A stretch of DNA of 64,000 nucleotides from Faecalibacillus sp. (GCA_963604635.1 CAVCRS010000001.1:9868-73867); one strand, 5' to 3'. Positions 28,038 to 50,817 are shown, numbered from the stretch's first letter. Numbers and translations: made by a program. Notes: generated by a model from the letters alone, not told the origin.

Positions 28038-28154
28038 TTTTTATTATTTTTTAATTAATATATCGGCAAAATAGGGTGCAAATTTACGATTTTTTTCCAA
28101 GCAAAGAAATTTTATTCCATCCTTTTCGTACTTTTGCATTCCAAATCCGTCCAT

Positions 28155-29888
28155 ATGAGAGTGCGTGACCTCGTATTTATGCTGATTTCCGCAGTTTTAT
28201 GCTGCGCGAGCCACACCGCCGGAGCGCAAGTTCCCGCGGACTCCACGGACTTTGCCGCGCGCGAAAACCTTCTCAAATCGAAGGTCGATTCCCTGCGCGA
28301 GAGCATGAGCCGCCGCCGTCCGGGGAATCTTTCAGTCGCAGAGCTCCGCAGCGTGGGGGACTCCCTGCGCCTGCGCTACGAGTTCGCAGCTTCGGTCAAG
28401 GCTCTGGAGGACGCGCTGGACGCTTCGACGGATTCTCTCGAGCGCCTCGACATCGAAGACAGACTGCTGCTCTCGCGTAACGGCCTGAGTATGACGGACT
28501 ACTGCAGCAAGCCGACCGTCGTAGCACGCAAACGCCTGTCCATCAAGGACTTTTTCCTCTATTACCCGATGCGCGACAGCAGCTGGCGGACACTTCCGAA
28601 CTGTCTCGACTCCCTGACCACGCACCCGCTGGTGCACGCGAGCTATGTTCCGGACGACGCGGAGCGGCTCTACTTCAGCACCGCTGATGAAGGCGGTGTG
28701 CGGAACGTCTATTATACTGAGCATCAAGACTCAGTGTGGTCCGTTCCAAGCCTTGTGAACGAGGGGATGACCACCGCGAGCGATGAGATTTTCCCGGTCC
28801 TGAGCGATGACGGCAAGTCGCTGTACTTCGCATCCGCCGGCCTCTTCGGAATGGGCGGCTATGACCTCTACGTCTCGCACTGGAACGAGCGCACGCGCGA
28901 CTGGGACACTCCGATGAACCTCGGATTCCCGTACAGCTCGCCGTATGACGATTTTCTCTACTGCAATTCCGAGGACGGACGATACACCGTCTTCGCTTCG
29001 AACAGAGCCTGCTCCCGCGACAGTGTAGATATCTATGTGCTTGAGTATGACTCGCTTCCGCTGCACTCCGCAGTCACGGACCCTGGCGAACTCCGCCGTC
29101 TTGCCGCGCTCGACCCTACTGTCAGCCGGCCGGCTCCGCCGTCCAATCCCGCCCCGGCGGCTTCTGTTCCGCAGCAGCCAATGGGGGAAGATATGGCTTC
29201 CTACCTCGAGCAGATGAATACCGTGCGCAGCCTGCGCGATTCCCTGAACACGTTCTCCGCAGAGCTGGATGCCCTGCGCGCCTCCCTCGCCTCCGTATCC
29301 GAAGATGAGCGCAAGGACCTTTCCGCACAGATTCTTCAGAAGGAGATGGACCTCATCCCGCTTCAGAAAGCCCTCGGCGAAGCAAGCAAAGCCCTGCAGG
29401 CCACGGAAATGGCCTTTTTGGAAAAGGGTGTGGTCATAGATCCGGAAAGCCTGATGTCCCCTTCGCGGAAGCCTTCGGAAACTCCGGAGGACAGTGCCCC
29501 TGAAGAATTCAGATTTATCCGCCATTCCTGGGGCAAACCTTTGGGAATGAACATCCTGAAGCCGGAACCGAAGTTCGATCTGACCTTCCGCATCGACTCG
29601 GAGAGCCAGGTTCTGGACGCCGCCACCGCGCTTCCTGACGGAATCATCTATCAGATACAGATTCTCTCCTCCGCCCGTCCGGCCGAAATCAGGGAGTTGC
29701 GCGGCCTGAATCCGGTCTTCCTCAAGTCCGGCGACCGCTACGTATATTCCGTCGGAGCCTTCCGGAGCTACTCCGAAGCCCTCTCCCACCTGAACAGGGT
29801 CCGCACCCTCGGCTTCCGTTCCGCCTTCATCACCGCCCTCCGCGACGGCTCCTCCATCTCCGTCCTCCAGGCCCGCAGCCTGGAATAA
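28155..29888 (+). CDS. Exported protein with PD40 (WD40-like) repeats, coiled coil and C-terminal SPOR-like domain
   Basis: Signal peptide; EIFPVLSDDGKSLYFAS.G..GMGGYDLYVS and PMNLGFPYSSPYDD..FASNR PD40 repeats; C-terminal YQIQI...YSVGAF.SY.EA.....RVR..GF..AFI; -7 box TACTTTTG at 28129 favours ATG 28155. Confidence 0.7.
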   Translation: MRVRDLVFMLISAVLCCASHTAGAQVPADSTDFAARENLLKSKVDSLRESMSRRRPGNLSVAELRSVGDSLRLRYEFAASVKALEDALDASTDSLERLDIEDRLLLSRNGLSMTDYCSKPTVVARKRLSIKDFFLYYPMRDSSWRTLPNCLDSLTTHPLVHASYVPDDAERLYFSTADEGGVRNVYYTEHQDSVWSVPSLVNEGMTTASDEIFPVLSDDGKSLYFASAGLFGMGGYDLYVSHWNERTRDWDTPMNLGFPYSSPYDDFLYCNSEDGRYTVFASNRACSRDSVDIYVLEYDSLPLHSAVTDPGELRRLAALDPTVSRPAPPSNPAPAASVPQQPMGEDMASYLEQMNTVRSLRDSLNTFSAELDALRASLASVSEDERKDLSAQILQKEMDLIPLQKALGEASKALQATEMAFLEKGVVIDPESLMSPSRKPSETPEDSAPEEFRFIRHSWGKPLGMNILKPEPKFDLTFRIDSESQVLDAATALPDGIIYQIQILSSARPAEIRELRGLNPVFLKSGDRYVYSVGAFRSYSEALSHLNRVRTLGFRSAFITALRDGSSISVLQARSLE

Positions 29889-30081
29889 CCTCCGGCTCCG
29901 GTACCCGCCCCGCTAATCCGGAGTGAAATAAGCCGCTTGTTTCACACCGAATCGATATGCTTCGAGCTGATGGGAGAAAAAGGAATAAGCAACGTGTCGC
30001 GACAATTCAATGTCCAGGGCCATCGAACAGGCCCTATACAACCGTTGCTTACTTCTTTATCTCTTTCAAGATTTATCTCTT

Positions 30082-31620
30082 TTACAGATTCCTGAGGAGG
30101 TTGTTCATATTCACCCTCTCATCGATAAGCTTGCGGAGCTCAGTGACAGGAACCCTCTCCTGGGTCATCGTGTCGCGGTCACGGACGGTCACGCAGTTGT
30201 CCACGAGAGAATCGTGATCCACGGTGATGCAGAACGGAGTTCCGATGGCATCCTGACGGCGATAGCGCTTCCCGATGGAATCCTTCTCCTCGTACTGGCA
30301 GTTGAAATCGTATTTCAGGTCATCCATAATCTTCTGGGCGAACTCAGGAAGGCCGTCCTTCTTCACGAGAGGAAGCACTGCAGCCTTAACCGGTGCCAGA
30401 GGGGCCGGGATGCTGAGCACGGTACGGGTCTCGCCGTTTTCGAGAGTCTCCTCCTTGAGGGAATGGCTCAGAACCGCCAGAACCATACGGTCCACACCGA
30501 TGGAAGTCTCGACCACATACGGAGTATAGCTCTCGCCTGTCTCAGGATCGTAATACTGAATCTTCTTGCCGGAGAACTTCTGATGGTTTCCGAGGTCGAA
30601 ATTGGTACGGCTGTGCACACCCTCAAGCTCCTTGAAACCGAACGGGAAGTTGAACTCGATGTCGGTGGCGGCGTTGGCGTAGTGAGCGAGCTTCTCGTGG
30701 TCGTGGAAGCGGTAGTTCTCCGCACCCATTCCGAGATTCACGTGCCACTTCATTCTCTTCTCCTTCCAGGTCTTGAACCAGTCCAGTTCGGTGCCCGGCT
30801 TGATGAAGAACTGCATCTCCATCTGCTCGAACTCCCTCATTCTGAAGATGAACTGACGGGCCACAATCTCATTTCTGAAAGCCTTGCCGATCTGGGCGAT
30901 ACCGAAAGGAATCTTCATACGGCCGGTCTTCTGCACGTTCAGATAGTTCACAAAGATGCCCTGAGCCGTCTCAGGACGCAGATAGATGGTGTTCGCGCCG
31001 TCAGCGGTGCTGCCCATCGAAGTGCTGAACATAAGGTTGAACTGACGGACCTCCGTCCAGTTGCAGGTGCCGCTGATAGGGCAGACAATGCCGCAGTCGA
31101 TGATGATCTGACGGTACTCGGCAAGGTCATTGGCCTGCTCCGCCTTCACGTAACGGTTGTGGACCTCATCGTAGCGGGCCTTCTCGCGGAGGATATTCGG
31201 ATTCGTCTCGCGGAACTTGGCTTCGTCGAAAGCCTCGCCGAACTTCTTGCGTCCCTTCTCCACATCCTTGTTCATCTTCTCCTCGATCTTGCCGAGATAA
31301 TCCTCGATGAGCACATCCGCGCGGTAACGCTTCTTGGAGTCCTTGTTGTCGATAAGCGGGTCATTGAAAGCGCCCACGTGGCCTGAAGCCTCCCAGATCT
31401 TAGGGTGCATGAAGATGCAGGAATCGATGCCGACGATGTTCTCGTTCAGGCGTGTCATCGCATTCCACCAATACTGTTTTATGTTGTTTTTAAGCTCCAC
31501 GCCCATCTGACCGTAGTCATAGACGGCAGCAAGTCCATCGTAGATTTCACTGGAGGGGAAAATGAATCCGTACTCCTTGCAATGTGCTACCAGCACTTTG
31601 AACAGTTCGTCCTGTGTCAT
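30082..31620 (-). CDS. glyQS: Glycine--tRNA ligase (alpha2 type)
   Basis: SSEIYDG, YLRPETAQGIF, GKAFRNE, FRMREFEQMEMQFF, SIGKRYRRQDAIGTP; start MTQDELFK. Confidence 0.96.
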   Translation of the reverse strand: MTQDELFKVLVAHCKEYGFIFPSSEIYDGLAAVYDYGQMGVELKNNIKQYWWNAMTRLNENIVGIDSCIFMHPKIWEASGHVGAFNDPLIDNKDSKKRYRADVLIEDYLGKIEEKMNKDVEKGRKKFGEAFDEAKFRETNPNILREKARYDEVHNRYVKAEQANDLAEYRQIIIDCGIVCPISGTCNWTEVRQFNLMFSTSMGSTADGANTIYLRPETAQGIFVNYLNVQKTGRMKIPFGIAQIGKAFRNEIVARQFIFRMREFEQMEMQFFIKPGTELDWFKTWKEKRMKWHVNLGMGAENYRFHDHEKLAHYANAATDIEFNFPFGFKELEGVHSRTNFDLGNHQKFSGKKIQYYDPETGESYTPYVVETSIGVDRMVLAVLSHSLKEETLENGETRTVLSIPAPLAPVKAAVLPLVKKDGLPEFAQKIMDDLKYDFNCQYEEKDSIGKRYRRQDAIGTPFCITVDHDSLVDNCVTVRDRDTMTQERVPVTELRKLIDERVNMNNLLRNL

Positions 31621-31731
31621 TTTAATAGTATTTTGAACAATTCGTAATATTTCCGAATAACCTGCAAATTTATAAAGACTTTCGCTATTTGACAAACTCC
31701 CGGCCCGCGAGCGCAGCGGAAAAACGGAGCG

Positions 31732-33117
31732 CTAATAGGTGTGCAGACTGAAGCCGCGTGCCGCAGGAAGCAGATTGACCCCCCACCAGCACATCTGCAG
31801 CAGCAGGAAGCAGAAAATCAGAAGATACATAGGAGCGCGCATTGACCGGCCGGCTTCGCCGTCCAATCCCGTACCTCTCATCCTCCTCAGATGCAGGTAG
31901 AGCAGGTAACCCAGCCAGGTGGCGGCGGCCCAGGTCTCCTTCGGATCCCAGGTCCAATAGTCCCCCCACGCCTGCTTCGCCCAGAGCGCTCCCATCGCCA
32001 TTCCCATCGTCAGGAATGCCCAGCCGATGCGAACCAGAGTGTCGCAGAGCCTGAGTTCTGTCCGGATTGGACGCCGCGGGGCGGCGGCCCCGGAAACCGG
32101 ATTGCCGGAAGGTTGCGACTGTGCGGCTTCCGCCTTTTTTCCGCGCGTCAGAATCAGGATGCGGATGGCGAGAACGGTCACGACACCCATCAGCGTGTAT
32201 GCGAAGATGTAGGCCGCGATGTGCGGAACGAGCCACGGACTGCGCAGCGCGGGTATCAGATCCTGCGTATGGACCCCGGGTCTGAAGATGCTTATGCAGA
32301 TGAAAATGACGGACACCGCGATGCTGGCAAGGAACCTGTGCCGCTCCCCCGGTTTTCTGGCTCCGCCGAAGAACGCCATCGCCGCCGCCGAGAAGAGAAT
32401 CAGATAGAGAATGACCTTGTATATTCCTGACAACGGGCAATATACGCATTTCAGCACGCTCGTGAATTCTCCTGTCCCGACGTTCATTCTATAATCCGTC
32501 TGATAGAGCCGCCAGGAGCCGACCTTCGCGGGATGGTTCACACAGACGGCGGTCTCGTAAAAACTCCCGTCGGGGAGCGTAACGGCGACTCCCGAGGTGT
32601 ATGACTCCGCATCGAAACTCTTGAGGGTCAGTTCGAAAGGAAGTTTTCTCGCAGCCCCGGTCCTTTCATCGGACGCCGTATGTACGGGGGTTCCCATAGC
32701 CGCCTCGATTTTCGCCCTTTCCGTCGTCCCTCCGCCGAAAAGGCCGGTAATGAGGATAACGGCCAGGCCCAGATGCGCGCAGGTAGCGCCCAGATGATGG
32801 CGAGGGAAATGGCGGATATCATCTGTCGCGCTCAGCGTCACGCCCGTAGAGAGAAACAGGATGGCCAGCAGGAATACCGGCGAACGCTTCATGGCTCTGA
32901 AACCCAGCGCCCCGAAAAAACCGTTCCCGCCCCCGTCTTGCGGAACGAGTCCGAAGATCAGAAGCAGGAACAGAAGTATAGATATCGAATATATGCAGGC
33001 TTTCCGGCCCGCAAGGATTCTGTACAGGGGCCAGCGCCCACGCCGGGCATAGATGACTGCCAGAAAGCAGACATAGACTATGGCCGCGACGGCGGCTGCC
33101 TGACCGGAGAGAGCCAT
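31732..33117 (-). CDS. ccsA: Fused ResB/CcsB-CcsA cytochrome c synthase (System II heme lyase)
   Basis: ResB-like N-half (AHLGLAVIL, LPFELTLKSF, VNHP....WRLYQ); PALRSPWLVPH; WWD domain GALWAKQAWGDYWTWDPKETW; C-terminal LHTY His; start overlaps the upstream stop (TGATG). Confidence 0.88.
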   Translation of the reverse strand: MALSGQAAAVAAIVYVCFLAVIYARRGRWPLYRILAGRKACIYSISILLFLLLIFGLVPQDGGGNGFFGALGFRAMKRSPVFLLAILFLSTGVTLSATDDIRHFPRHHLGATCAHLGLAVILITGLFGGGTTERAKIEAAMGTPVHTASDERTGAARKLPFELTLKSFDAESYTSGVAVTLPDGSFYETAVCVNHPAKVGSWRLYQTDYRMNVGTGEFTSVLKCVYCPLSGIYKVILYLILFSAAAMAFFGGARKPGERHRFLASIAVSVIFICISIFRPGVHTQDLIPALRSPWLVPHIAAYIFAYTLMGVVTVLAIRILILTRGKKAEAAQSQPSGNPVSGAAAPRRPIRTELRLCDTLVRIGWAFLTMGMAMGALWAKQAWGDYWTWDPKETWAAATWLGYLLYLHLRRMRGTGLDGEAGRSMRAPMYLLIFCFLLLQMCWWGVNLLPAARGFSLHTY

Positions 33118-34019
33118 CAGGCCTGAGCCCACTGCTCGCGCAGGAGTTCGACGGCTTTGGCGACGGTCTCGGCGCGGTCACCTGCGGTGCCGCACTCGAA
33201 GCTGACATACTTGTCGTACCCGATCTCCTTGAGAGCCTTGAACCCGGCGAGATAGTTATCCTTCTCTCCGTCCTCACCAGGCATCAGACGACGTCCGCGG
33301 CTGGCCATATGCACGTGCTGGAGGTATTCCTTGCCGGCTGACATAAACGCGCCGTAGTCTGACGTCTCCTCGGACATATGCCAGAAGTCTCCGAGCACCT
33401 TGACACCCTTGCTGCCGCAGTCGCGGGCTATGGCGGCGGCATCTGCGACCAGACGCAGGTAGAATGCCTCTTTTCTGTTCAGAGGCTCAAGAATCACGTG
33501 TGTACCGCACTCGAGGGCATACTCGCCAAGCTTGTAGAGTTCCTCACAAAGGAAATCGCGGGTCTCCTGAGTATGGGGACGGCAAGGTTTCTGGCTGACA
33601 AAAGCCGGAACCATTATCACTCCGGTGGAGCCGAGTTCTCCCGCGGCGGCGAGAATCTCACGGTAAGTCGTGTCAAAGGCTTCCTTCACTGCAGGGTCTT
33701 CGGCGAGAATGAAGCCGTCGAAACCGGCACAGATGGCGGAAACCTTGATATTCCTGCCGCTGAGAGCCTCCTGAATTTCCTTCACGCGCCCTGAAAGCCC
33801 CCTTCCGCCCGGTTCGAAACCGGTGATGCCGTGGCTCTCCATATAGTCAAGCCTGTCGGAGAGAGTCTCTCCCGGAGCTGTCCATTCCTGAAAAGAAAGG
33901 TTCAGAGGGACCTCGGGCTTTTTCTTGTCAGACGCGGCGGTGCAGCCAGGAAGAATGGAAGCGGCCGCTACGGCAGCACCGCCCATTGCGGTGGCTGTCA
34001 AAAACTGTCTTCTGTCCAT
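33117..34019 (-). CDS. AP-endonuclease-2/xylose-isomerase-like TIM-barrel protein (sugar-phosphate isomerase/epimerase family), Tat lipoprotein
   Basis: MDRRQFL twin-arginine signal plus LPGC lipobox; ILEPLNRKE, GDFWHM, HVHMAS..R..PG, VSFEC metal-binding motifs. Confidence 0.88.
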   Translation of the reverse strand: MDRRQFLTATAMGGAAVAAASILPGCTAASDKKKPEVPLNLSFQEWTAPGETLSDRLDYMESHGITGFEPGGRGLSGRVKEIQEALSGRNIKVSAICAGFDGFILAEDPAVKEAFDTTYREILAAAGELGSTGVIMVPAFVSQKPCRPHTQETRDFLCEELYKLGEYALECGTHVILEPLNRKEAFYLRLVADAAAIARDCGSKGVKVLGDFWHMSEETSDYGAFMSAGKEYLQHVHMASRGRRLMPGEDGEKDNYLAGFKALKEIGYDKYVSFECGTAGDRAETVAKAVELLREQWAQA

Positions 34020-34023
34020 ACTG

Positions 34024-35379
34024 CTATTTGCCTGTTCCCGGAACCGGAACGGTGTATTTGCTCATATCCATCTTGCCGAGCTCGAGTTTCTCAGGCATAT
34101 AATCCAGCTCTGCGGCACTGATTTCATCCCACTTTACGGTCTGGCCGGTATAAGCGGCCTCACGGCCCATCACACCGCACAGAGAAGAGATTCCGCACTC
34201 CCCTGCCTCGACGTGCGCTTCACCCTTGCGGATATGGTTGACCCAGTCCACGTGCTCCAGGACGTAAGGATTAGTCTGCTGATACTGAGCCTTTTCTGCC
34301 TCTGCGTCGAACTGCCAGATGATATTGTTCTGATAGTCGCGGATAGCGAAGTCGCTCGAACTCCACCAGCCTTTGGTACCGCGTACGACCTCGCCGACAT
34401 TGCTGGAACAGCCGTCTATCTGGCGGCACATACTGTGCAGATGCACACCGTTCTCATACTCGAAGTCTATGCTGAAGTTATCGTACTGGTCACCGGTGAT
34501 GCGTCTCTGGCGGCTGCCGAAGCCGGTCGCCGCTACAGGGTGCTTGCCTATCATCCAGTTGAATACGTCGATATTGTGAACGTGCTGCTCCACGATATGG
34601 TCACCCGAAAGCCACTTCCAGTTCACCCAGTCGCGGATCATCCATTCCATATCGCTCCAGCCCCTCTGGCGCTCGCGATACCAGAGCATTCCCTGGTTCC
34701 AGTAAACGTTGCCGCCGGTAATCTCACCGATCAGACCTTCCTGAATCTTCTTGAAAGACTCCACATAAGGTCTCTGGTGATGGCGCTGGGTTCCGGTAAC
34801 CACGCTGAGCCCCTTGGTCTCGGCCTGCTTGGCGGTAGCCATAATCAGACGGTAACCCTTTGCATCCACTGCGATAGGTTTCTCGAGGAAGGAGTGGACT
34901 CCCTTCTCGGTCGCATACTGGAAATGTGAAGGACGGAAAACGGGAGGAGTGGCCACGATGACCATATCCACGCCGGAATCGATGACCTGCTTGTAAGCAT
35001 CGAAGCCCACAAAGCAGTGGTCTTCAGGAACTTCCTGAGACCTTTCATTCTTCAGTTTCTCACGGAGGTCATTCAGACGGTCTGCAAAGACATCGCCGAG
35101 TGCGGTCACCTTGATGCCGTCGGCGGCATCCAGCAGGTTTCCGATGGCACCGCTTCCGCGGCCGCCGCAGCCGATGACTCCGACCTTCAGCTCCTTTCCG
35201 TCGATCGCCTTGTCAGCAAGCTCCGGTACATAGTACTCGCCTGCCTGGCGCAAAGGAGTCACTTTTTCTGATTTCTTACCATTACCGCAGGCTGACAGCA
35301 ATACACTGCCGCCTACAAGGCCCACGCCGATTTTGGCGCTGCGTCCGAGAAAATCTCTTCTGTCCATTTTATTACCCAT
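34024..35379 (-). CDS. Gfo/Idh/MocA NAD(P)-dependent oxidoreductase, Tat lipoprotein
   Basis: MDRRDFL twin-arginine signal plus LSAC lipobox; VGVIGCGGRG Rossmann motif, VATPP, FLEKP, GTQRHH, GDHIVEQHVHNID. Confidence 0.93.
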   Translation of the reverse strand: MGNKMDRRDFLGRSAKIGVGLVGGSVLLSACGNGKKSEKVTPLRQAGEYYVPELADKAIDGKELKVGVIGCGGRGSGAIGNLLDAADGIKVTALGDVFADRLNDLREKLKNERSQEVPEDHCFVGFDAYKQVIDSGVDMVIVATPPVFRPSHFQYATEKGVHSFLEKPIAVDAKGYRLIMATAKQAETKGLSVVTGTQRHHQRPYVESFKKIQEGLIGEITGGNVYWNQGMLWYRERQRGWSDMEWMIRDWVNWKWLSGDHIVEQHVHNIDVFNWMIGKHPVAATGFGSRQRRITGDQYDNFSIDFEYENGVHLHSMCRQIDGCSSNVGEVVRGTKGWWSSSDFAIRDYQNNIIWQFDAEAEKAQYQQTNPYVLEHVDWVNHIRKGEAHVEAGECGISSLCGVMGREAAYTGQTVKWDEISAAELDYMPEKLELGKMDMSKYTVPVPGTGK

Positions 35380-35383
35380 ATTA

Positions 35384-36919
35384 TTAATTATGAATTATTT
35401 CTTCAGGAACATCGCACACTACTCTGAAGCCGATGCCTTTTATGTCTGAATACCACCAGATGCTCTTCGGGTTCTGAGGGTCGGTACGAAGCCAGTCATC
35501 GTGGTGAGTATGGCTTCTGGCCGCACAGCGTACCTTCGATGCGTCATCCGAGTACGAACCTCCGCGCACCACGAATTCATCCCCGCTTTCCGGTCCCTTC
35601 GGGTCCAGAGCCCCGTCGGAAATCCCAGAATACGCATTCTCCGCATAGCGGTCGGCGCAGTATTCCATTACGTTACCCAGCATATTCTTGAGTCCGAACG
35701 GATTAGGCTTCACGTCCGAAGGCTCCTGGGTCTTTCCGAAACTGTCCTGTGCATAGACCACATAGCGTGTGATGAAAGTCGTGTCAGCACCGAAAACCTT
35801 GCTTCTGAAAGTCTCGGCGGACAGTCTGCGGGGATCGCCCTCGAAAAAGTATGGAGTCTGGGTTCCGCCGCGGGCGGCATACTCCCACTCAGCCTCCGTA
35901 GGGAGGCGATAGTTTCGTCCTGTCTTGAGCGACAGCCACTGGCAGAAAGTTTCAGCCGCATAATGTGTCATCGTTATGGCCGGGCGGTCGCCCATTCCCC
36001 AACCCTGGTCAGGGAAACCGAACGGCGGCGTAGGACCGCTGACGGCGTCCACGTCGGGACGGGAATTGTTCGCATAGATTTTTTCCGGCGGAGTGCGGCC
36101 CTCGGACATAGTCTCGTTATAGAAGGCCCAGAACTGGCTCCAGGTCACCTCCACCTCAGCCATAAAGAACGGGGAGATCCTGACTCTGCGCGCAGGCCCC
36201 TCATCGGCATTGCGGAAAGGCTCGTCCTCGGGACTGCCGAGAGTGAATTCGCCGCCCGGAATAGCCACCATTCTGATCGCGGCCGATGTCCCCGGCACGG
36301 TCTCGGTGAAGTTTTCGAAAGATGTAACCTGTGCCGCAGAGTCGTATTTCACGCTGCTGCCGGTATCCATCACCTTGCCTTCCAGACGCTTGTGCTGATA
36401 GCCAGGCATCTCGTGTCCGGTGTTCAGATGGCAGCTGATGCACTGCAGGTCGAGTTTTTCGGAATTTTCATCGTAATACAGGTGGGCGACGATGCCGTCA
36501 TCGGAAATTCCCGAAGGGAAAAGATTCTTGTGACATTTCTCACAGGACTCGTTATAGACTATCCGTGTGCCGTTTTCGAGCGTGCGTTTCGCATTCCAGT
36601 CTATCTCGTCAGGATTCTTTGTCATCTTGGCCCACAGATCTTTCGCCCCGATTCTGGCCTTTGTCATATAATAGCGCAGATAGCCGTTCTCTTTCGGGGG
36701 AAGATGACAGGCGGCGCAGTCGGTAACGACTCCGCTTTTACTGTTGTAATGTTCAGCCTTTTTCCAGTCCGCATCAGCCTGCTCGTGGTAGTGGCAGCTC
36801 ATGCAGTAATCATTCGTGGAAGTGCGGTTCAGAGCACCTCCAGCCGCGATTACAGCGCACACTCCGACCGCCAGCCCTCCGAGACCGGCCCACAAGACCC
36901 ATTTACCTTTTCCTTTCAT
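35384..36919 (-). CDS. Membrane-anchored NapC/NirT/NrfH tetraheme cytochrome c fused to an FGE-sulfatase (SUMF1-fold) domain
   Basis: N-terminal TM helix; four CxxCH motifs (CMSCH, CAACH, CEKCH, CISCH); KARIGAKD quinol-site-like motif; C-half MVAIPGGEFTLGS, EVTWSQF, YRLPTEAEWEYAARGG, PNPFGLKNMLGNVMEY, VRGGSY, IGFRVV. Confidence 0.9.
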   Translation of the reverse strand: MKGKGKWVLWAGLGGLAVGVCAVIAAGGALNRTSTNDYCMSCHYHEQADADWKKAEHYNSKSGVVTDCAACHLPPKENGYLRYYMTKARIGAKDLWAKMTKNPDEIDWNAKRTLENGTRIVYNESCEKCHKNLFPSGISDDGIVAHLYYDENSEKLDLQCISCHLNTGHEMPGYQHKRLEGKVMDTGSSVKYDSAAQVTSFENFTETVPGTSAAIRMVAIPGGEFTLGSPEDEPFRNADEGPARRVRISPFFMAEVEVTWSQFWAFYNETMSEGRTPPEKIYANNSRPDVDAVSGPTPPFGFPDQGWGMGDRPAITMTHYAAETFCQWLSLKTGRNYRLPTEAEWEYAARGGTQTPYFFEGDPRRLSAETFRSKVFGADTTFITRYVVYAQDSFGKTQEPSDVKPNPFGLKNMLGNVMEYCADRYAENAYSGISDGALDPKGPESGDEFVVRGGSYSDDASKVRCAARSHTHHDDWLRTDPQNPKSIWWYSDIKGIGFRVVCDVPEEIIHN

Positions 36920-36947
36920 CCCGAAAACCGTTTCAGCAAAAATCCCT

Positions 36948-36955
36948 CAAAGTTA
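36948..36955 (-). promoter_or_regulatory. -7 promoter box of the cytochrome/oxidoreductase operon
   Basis: Minus strand TAACTTTG about 28 nt upstream of ATG 36919. Confidence 0.6.
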
Positions 36956-36991
36956 AGCAAAAGGTCTAAGAGAACAAGCATTGTAAGTCCC

Positions 36992-37030
36992 AAAAACGGC
37001 GGAATTTTTGTAAAATAATTCCGCCGTTTT
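36992..37030 (-). terminator. Intrinsic terminator after the DUF1080 gene
   Basis: AAAACGGCGGAATT/AATTCCGCCGTTTT 14-bp inverted repeat with A/T tails. Confidence 0.7.
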
Positions 37031-37067
37031 CACTTAGCCCTCACTCGTGAGGTTCGTTGACAAATTT

Positions 37068-38366
37068 CTAAAGGGTAGTCAGAACGAAATTTCTCCAGAG
37101 CAGCTTGATATTGTTGCCGTCGTGGATCTGAAGCATGATACGGCCGTCTTTCGAGCCGATAAGTTCATCGTTGATGTCGATCATCGCCTCACCGTTCAGC
37201 CAGGTCTTTACGTTGTCACCTTCCACTCTGAGTCTGAGAGTGTTCCATTCTCCCTCGCGAAGGATTTCCTCCTTCTCGTCAGGAATCTGGACCAGCCAGC
37301 CGCGGCCGTAGGACTCATAAATTCCACCTGTATCGCTGCCTTTCGGAGCCACTTCGCACTGCCATCCGTTGACGATATTGTTCTGGTAACCGCCTTCCAC
37401 GAAAGAGTGGAAGAACAGACCGGAATTGCCGTTGGAACACTGCTTGAACTCGACTGTCAGGTCAAAGTTCTTGTAATATTCCCTGGTTCCGAGATAGCCA
37501 TAGCGCAGGTCCTCTCCGTTTTCGGTGACGAGATTACCCTCCTCATCGACTCCGGTGCGCATACTTCCGAACAGCTCCCATCCGTGAAGGTCCTTGCCGT
37601 TGAACAGACTGATCTGCCTGCCTGCACTCTTGTCAGGAAGTTCCTTGATCTTGATGTTGCGGAACGATGCCGGATCACCGTGGTCCTGAAGGCAGATTAC
37701 ACCCTCGTGAGCCAGGCCGTATTCTGTGGCGTTGCCCCATTTGCCGCTTGCCTTTCTGGCGAACCAGTCATCGGTCCAGGCTTCGAATTCGAGTATCTTT
37801 TCACCGTTGAGCCAATGCTCGACGTGGCCATTGTCAAAGACAATCTTCGAGTTGTTCCATTCTCCCTGCGGATTGACGTGCATTTTGCTTTCATCCGGCA
37901 GATGCATAGCGTAGTCCACTCCCAGTTTCTGCCATTCCTGAAGCTTTTCAGGAGCGTTCACTTCCTCCCAACCCTCGTTGTCGATAAGCTGATATTCAGG
38001 GCCCGTTACATACGGAACGGAGAATTTCGGGCTTTCGACCACGTGGTAGAGCATTCCGCTGTTGCCGCCGTGAGTGAGTTTCCAGTCCCAGGAAAGCTCG
38101 AAGTTGCCGTATTTTTTATCAGTCACGATGTAGCCGGAACCGTCGGCACCGGTGCCTGAAGCCTGGATGCAACCATCGACAACTTTCCAGCCGTTGGTCA
38201 GCGAATCGCCGTTGTAGTCGCGCCAGCCGTCCAGATTTTCTCCGTTGAACAGGAGCACCCATCCGTCCGCCTTTTCAGCCGACGTGAGCGTGTTCGGTTT
38301 CTGTGCGCACGAAACTAAAGCCGCAGCAGTAAGCGCTGCAATAACAAAAAATGAATTCTTTCTCAT
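37068..38366 (-). CDS. Tandem DUF1080 (3-keto-disaccharide hydrolase family) lipoprotein
   Basis: LVSC lipobox; two domains, each with LFNG..L.GW, NF.L..E/DWK/FK..GNSG, (EYQ/QCE), GEWN, G.I.LQ.H. Confidence 0.92.
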   Translation of the reverse strand: MRKNSFFVIAALTAAALVSCAQKPNTLTSAEKADGWVLLFNGENLDGWRDYNGDSLTNGWKVVDGCIQASGTGADGSGYIVTDKKYGNFELSWDWKLTHGGNSGMLYHVVESPKFSVPYVTGPEYQLIDNEGWEEVNAPEKLQEWQKLGVDYAMHLPDESKMHVNPQGEWNNSKIVFDNGHVEHWLNGEKILEFEAWTDDWFARKASGKWGNATEYGLAHEGVICLQDHGDPASFRNIKIKELPDKSAGRQISLFNGKDLHGWELFGSMRTGVDEEGNLVTENGEDLRYGYLGTREYYKNFDLTVEFKQCSNGNSGLFFHSFVEGGYQNNIVNGWQCEVAPKGSDTGGIYESYGRGWLVQIPDEKEEILREGEWNTLRLRVEGDNVKTWLNGEAMIDINDELIGSKDGRIMLQIHDGNNIKLLWRNFVLTTL

Positions 38367-46758: not shown

Positions 46759-47538
46759 CTAGTCAGAGAACTTTGCCTTAAGGAACTCACGGTTCAGGCG
46801 TGCGATGTGAGATACGGAGATTCCCTTAGGGCACTCCATCTCGCAGGCGCGAGTGTTCGTACAGTTACCGAAGCCGAGTTCATCCATCTTGGCCACCATA
46901 GCCTTGGCTCTGCGCTTGGCCTCAGGACGACCCTGAGGGAGAAGTGCGAGCGAGCTGACGCGGGCGGCTACGAAGAGCATTGCAGAACCGTTCTTGCAGG
47001 TGGCGACACAGGCGCCGCAACCTACGCAGGCAGCTGCATCCATACTTTCCTCAGCACGGTCGTGAGGAATGAGTATATTGTTGCCGTCCTGGGCTGAACC
47101 GGTACGTACGGAGATGAAACCGCCGGCCTGAAGGATCTTGTCGAACGCTCCCCTGTCGACAACGAGGTCCTTGATTACAGGGAAAGCGGCGCTTCTCCAC
47201 GGCTCCACAGTGATGGTGGCACCGTCCTTGAAATGACGCATAAAGAGCTGACAGGTAGTAACGTGGCTGTCAGGACCGTGTGCGCGGCCGTCAATGAACA
47301 GCGAGCAGGCACCGCAGATACCCTCGCGGCAGTCGTGGTCGAATGAGACAGGACCGCTGCTCTGGCAACCTCTTTCGACTGCTACAGGATCACAGCCTTC
47401 ACGAATAAGCTGCTCATTCAGAATATCAAGCATTTCGAGGAAAGAAGCGTCTTCCTCAATGCCCGCGATATGATAAGTCTCGAAATGTCCCTTATCCTTG
47501 GCGTTTTTCTGACGCCATATCTTCAAATTGAATTCCAT
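46759..47538 (-). CDS. sdhB: Fumarate reductase/succinate dehydrogenase iron-sulfur subunit
   Basis: [13 protein letters not shown]...TTCQ (2Fe-2S), [23 protein letters not shown]; start [10 protein letters not shown]. Confidence 0.94.
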
Positions 47539-47545
47539 CTCTGTA

Positions 47546-49492
47546 TTAGTCTTTGTAGTTTCTAGTCTTAACCTCAATAAATTCGTAGTTCAGAGGCTCC
47601 TTGTGGAGTTCAGGCTCGGCATTCTCACCCTTGTACTCCCAAGCCGCTACATACATATATTCGGCATCGTTTCTCTTGGCCTCGCCGTCCTCGGTCTGGC
47701 TTTCGATACGGAAGTGACCTCCGCAGGACTCGTTTCTGTTAAGAGCGTCACGGGCCATAAGTTCACCGATTTCAAAGAAATCCTCGAGACGCAGTGCCTT
47801 TTCGAGCTCCTGGTTGAACTCGAACTGAGTTCCCGGAACCTTTACATTCTGATAGAATTCCTTCTTCAGGTCCTTGATCTTCTGGATGGCAGTCTTGAGG
47901 CCTTCAGCGTCGCGGGCCATTCCGACATACTCCCACATAATGTTTCCGAGTCTCTTGTGAATAGAATCCACAGTCTCTTTGCCGTTGATGGAGAAGAGTT
48001 TGTCGATACGTGCCTGTACGGCCTTCTCGGCATCGTCGAACTCCTTGACGTCAGTCTTCTGCTTAGGCTCGGCGAACTTGTGCGAGAGATAGTCGTTTAT
48101 TGTGACAGGAACTACGAAATATCCGTCTGCAAGACCCTGCATAAGGGCTGATGCACCGAGACGGTTTCCGCCGTGGTCGGAGAAATTGGCCTCACCGATG
48201 GCGTAAAGTCCAGGGATGGTGGTCTGGAGATCATAGTCAACCCAGATACCGCCCATAGTGTAGTGGATGGCAGGATAGATCATCATAGGCTCCTCCCACG
48301 GGGAAGAAGCGGTGATCTTCTCGTACATATCGAAGAGGTTTCCGTAACGCTCGGCAACTCTCTTCCTGCCCAGGCGGGCGATAGCCTCCGAGAAGTCGAG
48401 GAACACGGCCTTTCCGGTCTCGTTAACGCCGTAACCTGCGTCACATCTCTCCTTTGCGGCACGTGAAGCCACGTCGCGAGGCACGAGGTTACCGAATGCA
48501 GGATATCTGCGCTCGAGATAGTAATCGCGGTCCTCTTCAGGAATCTGTGAAGGCTTGATGGTATGTGCGCGGAGCTTCTTTACATCCTCCATCTTCTTAG
48601 GAACCCAGATGCGGCCGTCATTGCGCAGGGACTCGGACATAAGGGTGAGCTTGCACTGCTGGTCACCGTGTACAGGGATACAGGTAGGATGGATCTGAGC
48701 GAAGCAAGGATTTGCGAAATATGCGCCCTTCTTGTAGCACTGCCAGGCTGCTGAACCGTTGCTGTTCATTGCGTTGGTGGAAAGGAAATAGGTATTTCCG
48801 TAACCGCCGGTGGCAATGATGACTGCGTGGGCACCGAATCTTTCGAGCTTTCCGGTTACGAGATTGCGGGCGATGATACCCTTAGCCTCACCGTTGACTA
48901 CCACGAGGTCAAGCATTTCGTGACGTGGATAGCTGGTGACGGTACCTGCTGCAATCTGACGGTTCAGGGCAGCGTAAGCTCCGAGGAGAAGCTGCTGACC
49001 GGTTTGTCCGCGGGCGTAGAATGTACGGCTTACCTGTACACCTCCGAATGAACGGTTTGCGAGGTAACCGCCGTATTCACGGGCGAAAGGAATACCCTGT
49101 GCAACGCACTGGTCAATAATCTGGGCACTTACTTCAGCCAGACGGTAAACGTTAGCCTCGCGTGCACGGTAGTCGCCTCCCTTGATGGTATCATAGAAAA
49201 GACGGTAAACTGAATCATTGTCGTTCTGATAGTTCTTCGCAGCATTGATACCGCCCTGTGCGGCGATGGAGTGCGCACGGCGAGGTGTATCACTGATACA
49301 GAAGACTTTAACATTGTATCCGAGCTCTCCGAGAGTTGCAGCTGCGGATGCACCGCCAAGTCCGGTACCTACTACGATGATCTCGAGTTTCCTCTTATTG
49401 TTAGGACTGACAAGATGAATTTCTGACTTGCGCTTGGTCCATTTTTCGGCAAGCGGTCCGGCAGGAATTTTGGAATTTAATTTATCGGCCAT
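47546..49492 (-). CDS. sdhA: Fumarate reductase/succinate dehydrogenase flavoprotein subunit
   Basis: [18 protein letters not shown] (FAD His), [34 protein letters not shown]; start [10 protein letters not shown]. Confidence 0.95.
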
Positions 49493-49515
49493 TTTATAGT
49501 TGTTATGATTGAATT

Positions 49516-49523
49516 CAAAATTA
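49516..49523 (-). promoter_or_regulatory. -7 promoter box directly upstream of sdhA/frdA
   Basis: Minus strand TAATTTTG about 23 nt before the ATG. Confidence 0.55.
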
Positions 49524-49572
49524 TCCGCAATTTTAGTCATTTTTAATGAAACGACCAATTCAAACTGCTGAA

Positions 49573-50817
49573 TTATAACAGAAATGCGCTGAAACAGCTC
49601 TTATAGACATCAAAGTAAGTCTCTGTGAGAGCAGCATATCCGTCATAAAATTCAGAATCCGAAATTTCAGAGTTCAGCCAGCGGCGGTACAGGGCATAGA
49701 AAGAGGAATCTATTTTCTTTTCAGCGGCATTGCAGCAGGAAAGCAGAGACGGCTTCTCCCCCACCCCTTTCAGAATGTTGTCCAGACGCAGATACTTCTC
49801 GCCGCTGCTAACCTTGAATGTGAACACATAATCAGATTTAATCTTCAGTGCGAGGCTGCAGAGATCGGAGTTAACGCTTGATTCTGACTTCTTTATGCAG
49901 GAAGGAAGCCTGTCGGAGTCCGTAACCATCACAGGAAGCGCGACGCTGCAGGCCGGGTAGCCCAGAACAGTCCACATAACGGCGTGCGCAGGATTCTCTC
50001 CGGACGCGACACCCTCGAACACGATGGCTGCCGAAGTCGAGATGCGCGGAATGAAATCCTGGTCGATTCCCACACCGGTGAAGGAAGTCTTGCGTTTGAG
50101 CGTTTTCCAGTCCTTAGCGAAATCAAAACCTGTCAGAGAATGACGGTAGGAGCGCGAAAGGGAGTTAAACAAATCATTATGATTCAAGCCGTTCCACTCT
50201 TTTCCCGAAGAGCGCAGCTCCGACATCACATCGCTCGCGGTCAGATAGCGCTCGTAACCTCTCACATCCTCCTGACGCCCGCGCGTCGAGAAGTTCGTCA
50301 CGACCCGATAGCCCGTCTCCGATTCATTTACGTCGTACTTGACCCAGGAAGTGTTGTCCACTTCATAGTATGCAGCTCCGCCGAAAGCGTCGATGACTCC
50401 GAAGTTAGTCTGAACTCCCATTGGACGCGCCAGCGCGTCCAATAGCAACTCAAAGTCTTTCAGCGTCTTGCACTCCCCCAGCGCGCGGTACATCACCTGC
50501 CCCTCGCGGCTCATTTGGGAACGTGGAACGTCATCGTACTTCATATTGTACGAAGCTGTATTGATGATCGCGAAGCCGGCTTCGTTCAGTCCGCTCCAGA
50601 CCTCTCCCCCTTCGGACGGAGAATCCACGAGGCCCGTGAATGCGTAGAGGGGACCGCGGAAATACTCGACCCTGTTATTCATCTCATCGGTGTCACGATT
50701 TTTAATCATCAGCGGACGGCCGTCGGAAGTGGCTCTTCCTGAAATAATTACTGATGTGCAGCAGAACGATGGAACTGCGCACAGCAGAAGCAGAATGGTA
50801 AAAAACAATTTCTTCAT
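49573..50817 (-). CDS. Secreted Ntn-hydrolase (C45/C69-like; carcinine hydrolase/isopenicillin-N acyltransferase family)
   Basis: Signal peptide exposing N-terminal [43 protein letters not shown]. Confidence 0.8.

Follow-up and report, generated by a model that had tools for sequence, protein, structure and literature searches.

Here we report that a minus-strand block of five genes in Faecalibacillus sp. (GCA_963604635.1) is a real, self-contained cassette, the core of which is a tetrahaem cytochrome of the NapC/NirT family fused to a domain with the fold of formylglycine-generating enzyme (FGE), together with an oxidoreductase of the Gfo/Idh/MocA family (hereafter Gfo) that is exported by the twin-arginine translocation (Tat) system. 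The block occupies positions 31732-38366 of the stretch that we analyzed (64,000 nucleotides, CAVCRS010000001.1:9868-73867; hereafter the window), counted from its first letter. We somewhat favor the reading that the cassette oxidizes a sugar or polyol in the periplasm and that the NAD(P)H bound to its dehydrogenase is re-oxidized through a probably flavinylated loop of the FGE fold and four haems, with menaquinone as the presumed acceptor. The broader proposal, to which we give rather less credence and which in our judgment falls a little short of probable, is that gut Bacteroidales possess an undescribed respiratory entry running from the exported Gfo through ApbE-attached flavin mononucleotide (FMN) on the FGE fold and four haems to menaquinone and fumarate, encoded by a cassette that brings a haem lyase with it and can be acquired or lost in one piece. 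An original prediction for this DNA had wired oxidative (3-keto) glycoside-cleavage enzymes to a tetrahaem quinone oxidoreductase; the wiring idea emerges strengthened and more specific, having acquired a flavin arm, an ancient FGE-Gfo pair and the behavior of a cassette, while the link to 3-keto cleavage is weakened.

The export of Gfo enzymes by the Tat system with NAD(P) already bound is established, as cited by Liu 2021 (PMC8121099), and in the accessible parts of that paper and of the Nasseri 2024 preprint (10.1101/2024.03.25.586180) the re-oxidation of this trapped cofactor, in a compartment without a nicotinamide pool, is left open. In the same portions of text, Liu 2021 proposed that BT2158 re-oxidizes its cofactor with another sugar and considered that dehydrogenases dependent on cytochrome c are probably ruled out by the Bacteroides chain, and Nasseri 2024 described an oxidoreductase that stalls in the reduced state and named cytochromes as possible re-oxidants. 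Among the papers listed by our full-text literature search, none joins an FGE-fold protein or a Gfo to ApbE or to a cytochrome of the NapC type, and the coupling of such enzymes to a tetrahaem quinone module, put forward earlier as possibly novel, was likewise without a description in the literature searched.

A Gfo gene adjoins the fusion in every fused locus with room for it: 69/69 loci in a close set (with at least 1.4 kb downstream of the fusion), 20/20 at order level and 2/2 at phylum level. The close set comprises the best 80 of the 583 stretches in the genome collection that encode a fusion relative (60-90% identity), and consists of gut and rumen contigs of Bacteroidales, with Phocaeicola abscessus and P. 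oris in addition. The order-level set was drawn from 151 Bacteroidales genomes, roughly one per genus; 20 of the 151 sampled genomes carry the fusion, and the set holds 20 loci from 17 fusion genomes, three of which gave two each. With a phylum-wide set of 401 genomes, the fused loci number 102 in total across all sets. The Gfo gene lies downstream on the same strand in 74/80 close loci and, at order level, directly downstream in 19 and nearby in one. An AP-endonuclease-2-like (AP2) TIM barrel gene is adjacent in 61 of the 62 close loci with room and in 14/19 order-level loci, and lies within 6 kb in 15/20 of the latter. Scoring of 8,000 candidates in a protein database gave 5,476 clusters at E <= 1e-40. 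The gene arrangement is far beyond chance. The co-occurrence on which the original prediction had staked its case was therefore found for NapC-FGE and Gfo in all fused loci with room, for the TIM barrel mostly, and for the haem lyase CcsBA in the close clade only.

Of the 401 phylum-wide genomes, three encode the full fusion and many a standalone FGE-like protein of 314-368 residues, with a signal peptide and 35-47% identity to the FGE part of the fusion. A Gfo orthologue (35-70% identity) adjoins 28/31 of these standalone loci in other Bacteroidota, and the AP2 TIM barrel is adjacent in 16/31. Because the adjacency holds with or without the cytochrome, the FGE fold and this Gfo subfamily form a conserved pair, which bears out the earlier view of the FGE-fold domain as partner of the Gfo. 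From the sequences, the pair appears to be older than the fusion, the tetrahaem quinone module apparently having been added in Bacteroidales.

The block as a whole comes and goes together. A genome of the same genus (G409, 100% complete) lacks the fusion and all five genes, and there the order MnmG-SufS-SufE-FeS-HPPK is followed directly by the prolyl-tRNA synthetase gene (ProRS), with about 160 nt between (L175, C2:86000-105999). This empty HPPK/ProRS junction therefore indicates that the five genes, that for DUF1080 included, are gained or lost as one 6.6-kb unit, and the ends of the indel coincide with 31732-38366. The DUF1080 gene, placed immediately upstream of the operon in the original prediction, does not belong to the operon as a conserved member: it lies behind a terminator-like hairpin and is found anywhere in the locus in only 19/80 close and 0/20 order-level loci, yet it is inside the indel. 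The 20 order-level fused loci contain no CcsBA, DUF1080 or ApbE gene.

The fusion protein consists of a NapC/NirT part (residues 1-175), a low-confidence linker and a cysteine-less FGE-fold domain (residues ~205-505). PF03264 matches it at 92.9 bits against a gathering cut-off of 24.1, over profile positions 9-172 of 174. Four CXXCH haem c motifs are present (CMSCH, CAACH, CEKCH and CISCH), and the AlphaFold2 (AF2) model, with a predicted local distance difference test score (pLDDT) of 85.4, has a single N-terminal membrane helix at 4-32. One N-terminal helix and four CXXCH motifs are also the layout of NrfH, CymA, NapC and the N-terminal part of TorC; direct similarity to NrfH (2j7a) is nevertheless weak, and the fusion stays below all NCBIfam equivalog cut-offs (NrfH 59.6 vs 134.2; NapC/NirT 54.5 vs 310.6; TorC 61.4 vs 478.2). 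Unlike members of the NapC/NirT family, the window cytochrome is fused to an FGE fold and has a dehydrogenase, not a reductase, as its partner, and the flow proposed for it is quinone reduction, whereas NapC/NirT proteins typically act as quinol dehydrogenases. Its exchange of electrons with menaquinol/menaquinone is predicted.

The FGE-fold domain is matched by PF03781 (FGE-sulfatase) at 136 bits and by FGEs in the PDB at about 1e-23, and in a Foldseek search PvdO (5hha) came top (E 5.6e-19, TMt 0.80) with FGEs next. Alignment to human FGE places the segment ...GGSYMCHRSYCYRYRC... opposite ...GGSYSDDAS---KVRC..., and both catalytic, copper-binding cysteines of FGE are absent from the fusion. 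A functional FGE, or a role in sulfatase maturation, was rejected on this ground despite the fold. PvdO resembles the window domain in having an FGE fold, no catalytic cysteines and a periplasmic redox setting; the window protein is not, however, a member of the PvdO family (100 bits vs an NCBIfam cut-off of 500 for dihydropyoverdine dehydrogenase), and to our knowledge PvdO has no cytochrome fusion, Gfo partner or ApbE-like loop.

The Gfo carries a signal peptide with a twin-arginine motif (RRDFL, of which R7 and R8 are nearly invariant across the alignment) and a lipobox (LLSAC). It is matched by PF01408 at 49.3 bits, and by PF22725 and PF02894 too; the Rossmann-loop glycines G70, G72 and G77 and the pair E166-K167, with the EKP lysine, are invariant in 57/57 aligned rows, and the Gfo/Idh/MocA fold of its AF2 model (pLDDT 91.1) was confirmed by structure search. 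Judged by these comparisons the enzyme appears remote from every solved or curated subfamily. Its best PDB sequence matches, to an inositol dehydrogenase and to the glucuronide 3-dehydrogenase P2B11, have E-values no better than about 1e-8, AL3 and BT3 chains are not among its 15 PDB matches at E <= 1e-5, and it scores 25.1 bits against NF058561 (BT_2158_fam), for which the cut-off is 750. Its fold neighbors are inositol dehydrogenases, YjhC/NanOx, aldose-aldose oxidoreductase and anhydro-sugar dehydrogenases; these many sugar, inositol and anhydro-sugar dehydrogenases match about equally, and naming a substrate from the fold was given up for that reason. The substrate is likely to be a secondary hydroxyl of a glycoside or free sugar, and the product likely a keto-sugar.

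The signal peptide of the TIM barrel likewise combines a twin-arginine motif (RRQFL, with a weak match to PF10518) and a lipobox (ILPGC), and the barrel is matched by PF01261 at 99.5 bits (3.2e-28). Its orthologue 3kws (1.4e-115) is an uncharacterized structural-genomics entry, and its nearest characterized relative is a 3-keto-D-glucoside 4-epimerase, YcjR of E. coli (6wn6, 1.9e-22 over residues 50-284). The best NCBIfam model is that of IolO, a 5-keto-L-gluconate epimerase, at 72.5 bits and under the cut-off of 300. In E. coli, YcjR works with Gfo-family glucoside 3-dehydrogenases. The similarity between the two barrels is moderate, and YcjR is cytoplasmic whereas the window protein is a Tat-exported lipoprotein. 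The DUF1080 protein contains two PF06439 domains (276 bits, 1.8e-82) and is closer to the uncharacterized PDB entries 3u1x (1.5e-67) and 4jqt (tandem, 5e-58) than to the BT2157-type 8tda/8tde (7.5e-35).

These results bear on the proposed kinship with the 3-keto glycoside pathway encoded by BT2156-BT2159 (AL1-AL4). The two systems are alike in that each combines, in the periplasm, DUF1080 and an AP2 TIM barrel with a Tat-exported Gfo in which NAD(P) is presumably trapped, and in both the route by which the cofactor is re-oxidized poses the same problem. The pathway has no cytochrome, FGE-fold protein or CcsBA, and the DUF1080 protein of the block belongs to a different, tandem subfamily. The superfamilies of the 3-keto pathway named in the original prediction are thus all present, while the resemblance is confined to the superfamily level. 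Assignment of the block to 3-keto glycoside cleavage itself is not supported by these comparisons, as the Gfo and TIM barrel are not orthologues of BT2156-BT2159 (25.1 bits vs 750 for the Gfo, and an epimerase as nearest relative for the barrel).

A Gfo yields a hydride and haems take single electrons, and the likely converter between two-electron and one-electron steps, overlooked in the original prediction, is a candidate ApbE-type flavin site on a loop of the FGE fold. According to the accessible text of a 2025 review (PMC12052999), the ApbE motif is D-x-x-[S/T]-G-A-[S/T], the flavin being attached at the last S/T, and G-to-A and A-to-V changes in it lowered flavinylation. The loop of the fusion (residues 271-310) has a pLDDT of 54-67 inside an otherwise confident FGE-fold domain. 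The last motif residue is S or T in 57/57 aligned proteins and the fifth is Gly in 46/46 fused ones, all 46 of which read D-[AGV]-[VI]-x-G-[PA]-T, including an exact DAISGAT in three (L142, L148 and L150).

The standalone relatives link the pair to ApbE by position. Of the 31 standalone loci, 13 have an ApbE gene no more than about 9 kb away (seven of these genes were confirmed as PF02424), mostly in the order FGE-Gfo-ApbE-TIM (L123, L127, L161, L162, L166) and in L159 as ApbE-FGE-Gfo. Five ApbE-linked genomes, of 4-6 Mb, contain only one to three ApbE genes each, the operon copy being the sole ApbE of G227; in five of the ApbE operons, the conserved FGE-like loop is the only ApbE-like motif present. 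Known ApbE-flavinylated proteins (NqrC, RnfG, NosR, PplA, DUF2271 and DUF3570, in the accessible text of PMC8238504 and PMC12052999) are, like the fusion, extracytosolic redox proteins with a D-x-x-[S/T]-G-x-[S/T] loop. Their systems share with that of the fusion a linked membrane electron module and, in the operons of its relatives, apbE. The window carrier differs from them in its FGE-like fold and non-canonical motif, and in that its flavin attachment is a prediction. The main text of the two flavinylation surveys (PMC8238504 and PMC12052999), in its accessible parts, makes no mention of FGE, sulfatase, NapC or Gfo, nor do three small supplementary files of the flavinylation survey mention PF03781 or PF01408.

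Several observations weigh against the proposed flavin arm and the direction of flow. The window loop, D-A-V-S-G-P-T, has Pro where the ApbE motif has Ala. In the ApbE-linked standalone relatives, R, T or L replaces the motif Gly, so that either their ApbE tolerates the change or it serves something else there. None of the 102 fused loci contains an ApbE gene; the single ApbE of the window genome is on another contig (C18), and complexes of the Rnf/Nqr type require ApbE in any case. The known role of NapC/NirT proteins is mainly the oxidation of quinol, and we know of no Gfo/Idh/MocA enzyme that passes electrons to flavin or haem. The best match to MenA, taken as an indicator of menaquinone synthesis, scores 46 bits, under the cut-off of 102, in an assembly that is 71.6% complete. 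The related genomes in which the gene arrangement was counted are, moreover, non-independent samples.

With these reservations, the course of electrons may be pictured as follows. The Tat system would export the Gfo with NAD(P) bound, and the enzyme would oxidize a periplasmic sugar. The FGE-fold domain would dock the Gfo and receive its hydride on an FMN carried by T297 of a swinging loop, where the hydride would be converted to one-electron steps, the flavin then passing single electrons to the four haems. The NapC/NirT module would reduce menaquinone, with onward transfer to fumarate reductase, while the TIM barrel may epimerize or isomerize the keto-sugar product and CcsBA would mature the cytochrome of the operon. 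By standard potentials, passage from NAD(P)H through flavin and low-potential haems to menaquinone is downhill. In its proposed periplasmic oxidation of sugar hydroxyls with haem c leading to the respiratory chain, the cassette resembles the LacABC glycoside 3-dehydrogenase and ThuAB (cited in Liu 2021, PMC8121099, in its accessible text). It differs from these flavin/PQQ (pyrroloquinoline quinone)-type systems in its nicotinamide-dependent Gfo catalyst, its NapC/NirT quinone module and its setting in an anaerobe.

Searches of the window assembly (71.6% complete) for NrfA and for molybdopterin oxidoreductases of the NapA/TorA/DmsA type came up empty, in agreement with the absence of nrfA and napA reported earlier for the window, and the fusion is the only NapC/NirT protein and the only open reading frame (ORF) with at least three CXXCH motifs. 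A fumarate reductase/succinate dehydrogenase is encoded in the window, 9 kb from the cassette (FrdB Fe-S subunit 46759-47577, minus strand; FrdA flavoprotein 47546-49558, minus strand; TIGR01811 973 bits). A 414-residue ORF upstream of FrdA (49573-50817) has no Pfam match and may hold the cytochrome b subunit.

The ResB-like and CcsA parts of CcsBA are joined in one protein (PF01578 6.3e-34; PF05140 9.5e-11), which contains the haem-handling sequence WGDYWTWD and scores 135 bits against TIGR03144, under the cut-off of 187.6. It is the sole full-length member of its family in the window assembly. The idea that the genome encodes no other haem lyase was considered and rejected: a 59-residue Cytochrom_C_asm fragment (24.8 bits), cut by the contig end, lies at C89:3-167 of the window genome, and the cassette-less G409, which also lacks NrfA, has two members of the Cytochrom_C_asm family (706 and 259 residues). 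Some other client may thus exist for haem lyases in the genus. A CcsBA gene stands in the operon in 29 of the 53 close loci with room and in 0/18 order-level loci, so the original idea of a dedicated haem lyase applies to a real in-operon gene that is confined to the closest clade. Two of the in-operon carriers, the window genome (G000) and Alistipes sp. CAG:514 (G403), have no NrfA match, and four fusion carriers without an in-operon CcsBA (G031, G385, G401 and G402) have NrfA, with a Ccs gene adjoining nrfA in G031 and G402.

The same wiring might serve only to prime or rescue the Gfo, its trapped NAD(P)H being re-oxidized whenever a redox-neutral cycle of oxidation, elimination, hydration and reduction stalls, with no net oxidation or gain of energy. 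We consider this unlikely, although AL3/BT3 is trapped in its reduced state unless a re-oxidant is available, with cytochromes suggested for that role (Nasseri 2024 preprint, accessible text), the DUF1080 and AP2 TIM families accompany the block, and the block has no transporter or kinase of its own. Neither AL3/BT2158 nor the lyase has an orthologue in the Gfo or TIM barrel, however; a four-haem quinone module with a dedicated CcsBA would be a heavy investment for occasional use, and the core pair goes without DUF1080 in most loci. Quite improbable, in our view, is the version given in the original prediction, in which the FGE-fold domain is a docking or lectin-like adaptor without a cofactor and the nicotinamide of the Gfo, or a keto/enediol sugar, passes electrons directly to the nearest haem. 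A hydride normally needs a flavin or quinone to reach one-electron haems, ApbE accompanies the cytochrome-less FGE-like/Gfo pairs in 13/31 loci (in G227 as the only copy), and the S/T is kept in 57/57 proteins on a flexible loop; the conserved FGE-Gfo pairing, the Pro for Ala in the window motif, the 0/102 fused loci with ApbE and the existence of FGE-fold scaffolds elsewhere (e.g., PorK/GldK) would all suit an adaptor.

Reversed flow, from menaquinol through the haems to a Gfo that reduces a periplasmic keto-sugar or other carbonyl as terminal acceptor, would fit the typical role of NapC/NirT proteins as quinol dehydrogenases (in the accessible parts of the CymA and NrfH literature) and the reversibility of Gfo-family enzymes. 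We hold it to be very unlikely: electrons would have to climb strongly uphill from menaquinol (about -74 mV) to bound NAD(P)+ (about -320 mV), and in aerobes the pair is retained by cytochrome-less relatives that have no quinol module. We give almost no credence to an incidental Gfo neighborhood in which a distant NrfA, NapA or TorA is served by the cytochrome as quinol dehydrogenase of the NrfH/NapC type, or the FGE part matures sulfatases. The resemblance to NrfH, NapC and TorC in Pfam and NCBIfam, and the only database names given to fusion relatives (“formylglycine-generating enzyme” and “SUMF1/EgtB/PvdO family nonheme iron enzyme”), point that way. Against it stand the lack of NrfA or a molybdopterin enzyme in the 71.6%-complete assembly, the loss of both catalytic FGE cysteines and a Gfo adjoining in every fused locus with room. 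NrfA is, in addition, absent from 10/20 fusion-bearing Bacteroidales genomes, eight of them at least 94% complete, and a distant NrfA as the object of the cytochrome, which the original prediction had named as fatal to its idea, is largely refuted by these carriers and by the Gfo adjacency. The reading that we favor thus remains re-oxidation of Gfo-bound NAD(P)H through a flavinylated FGE loop and the haems.

ORF calling and Pfam profiles show five genes filling the block on the minus strand (Table 1). The fusion and Gfo genes are separated by 4 nt, as are those for the Gfo and TIM barrel, and the TIM barrel and CcsBA genes overlap by 16 nt with a GTG start at 33132 or by 1 nt with an ATG start at 33117. 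The tight operon described earlier, with gaps of 4, 4 and -1 (the ATG start at 33117), was reproduced, as were the export signals, membrane location and domain assignments of its proteins by Pfam and translation. Its -7 box, TAACTTTG, is present 29 nt ahead of the fusion ATG at 36919; the pattern occurs 26 times across the window vs 17.6 expected and is weak evidence alone. Between the DUF1080 and cytochrome genes lies a hairpin with a 15-bp stem and a 10-nt loop followed by U's (minimum free energy -26.8 kcal/mol, z -6.63; 0/200 shuffles fold equally well). Because this hairpin with its U's separates the two genes, the operon proper consists of four genes, and the DUF1080 gene either forms a transcription unit by itself or is read from genes upstream. 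Scans for sigma-70 promoters (5 promoter-like sites vs 3.5 expected) and for terminators (9 sites vs 6.1 expected) were uninformative, the latter missing the long hairpin with its 10-nt loop.

Table 1. Genes and candidate sites of the block, in window coordinates
Feature	Positions	Strand	Remarks
Tandem DUF1080 (3keto-disac_hyd) Sec-lipoprotein	37068..38366	-	Two PF06439 domains; lipobox LVSC
Terminator-like hairpin, DUF1080/cytochrome intergenic	36993..37031	-	By folding energy
Bacteroidetes-type -7 box TAACTTTG	36948..36955	-	Consensus match only
NapC/NirT tetrahaem-FGE fusion, 511 residues	35384..36919	-	PF03264 + PF03781
Candidate ApbE flavinylation site D291-A-V-S-G-P-T297	36029..36049	-	Predicted; flexible loop of the FGE-fold domain
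Gfo/Idh/MocA Tat-lipoprotein	34024..35379	-	PF01408, PF22725, PF02894; predicted NAD(P)-bound sugar/polyol dehydrogenase
AP_endonuc_2 (xylose-isomerase-like) TIM barrel, Tat-lipoprotein	33117..34019	-	PF01261; predicted keto-sugar epimerase/isomerase
Fused CcsBA (system II cytochrome c synthase)	31732..33132	-	ResB + Cytochrom_C_asm (PF05140 + PF01578)

The ORF and Pfam survey found no transporter or kinase gene within the block, and its flanks are housekeeping genes, with ProRS on one side and HPPK, an Fe-S assembly protein, SufE, SufS and MnmG on the other. Two long ORFs without a Pfam match in the neighboring part of the window are probably not genes: one (30010-31386, plus strand) is antisense to ProRS (30082-31695), and the other (28731-29789, minus strand) is antisense to an ORF with PD40 repeats (28134-29888).

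The surroundings of the pair in other genomes are varied. Three genomes (G467, G477 and G524) have two full-length fusion paralogues each, every one with a Gfo neighbor (L143/L145, L141/L147 and L142/L148, respectively), which suggests several substrate specificities per genome. In L137, L145, L147 and L148, a ThuA-family gene and a second Gfo with a C2-type C-terminal domain adjoin the fusion-Gfo pair; these additional pairs resemble ThuAB disaccharide 3-dehydrogenases, and GT2 glycosyltransferases come next in L145, L147 and L148. Other loci have a sugar context in the form of DUF1080 directly upstream (L114), GH2, GH36, GH29, GH95 and GH78, and a nucleoside/sugar-type MFS transporter. A YceI-like gene occurs in 3/31 standalone loci (L118, L116 and L119), directly beside the standalone FGE-like gene, with PSCyt1/PSCyt2/PSD1 and DUF1501 a few kb off; planctomycete-type cytochrome c (PSCyt1/PSCyt2/PSD1) or the YceI-like protein might be the electron outlet in aerobes. 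The operon is also present at 80-90% identity on contigs with non-Bacteroidales labels (L006, L011, L012, L014, L015, L028, L030 and L054), namely Methanomethylophilaceae archaeon, Anaerotignum, Lachnospiraceae, Oscillibacter, Eggerthellaceae, Eubacteriales, Kurthia and Bulleidia, which are probably binning or labeling errors.

Based on these observations, we propose the cassette as a concrete, widespread and testable candidate for the missing link in the re-oxidation of NAD(P) trapped in exported Gfo enzymes. If the proposal is true, the FGE fold would join the substrates of ApbE as a new class of flavinylation substrate, and the misleading annotation of these proteins as formylglycine-generating or nonheme iron enzymes would be corrected. 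The cytochrome-less versions, in which FGE-like protein, Gfo, ApbE and TIM barrel are encoded together, would then represent an ancient, phylum-wide flavin-linked dehydrogenase system, and gut anaerobes would gain respiratory electrons from the oxidation of sugars in the periplasm.

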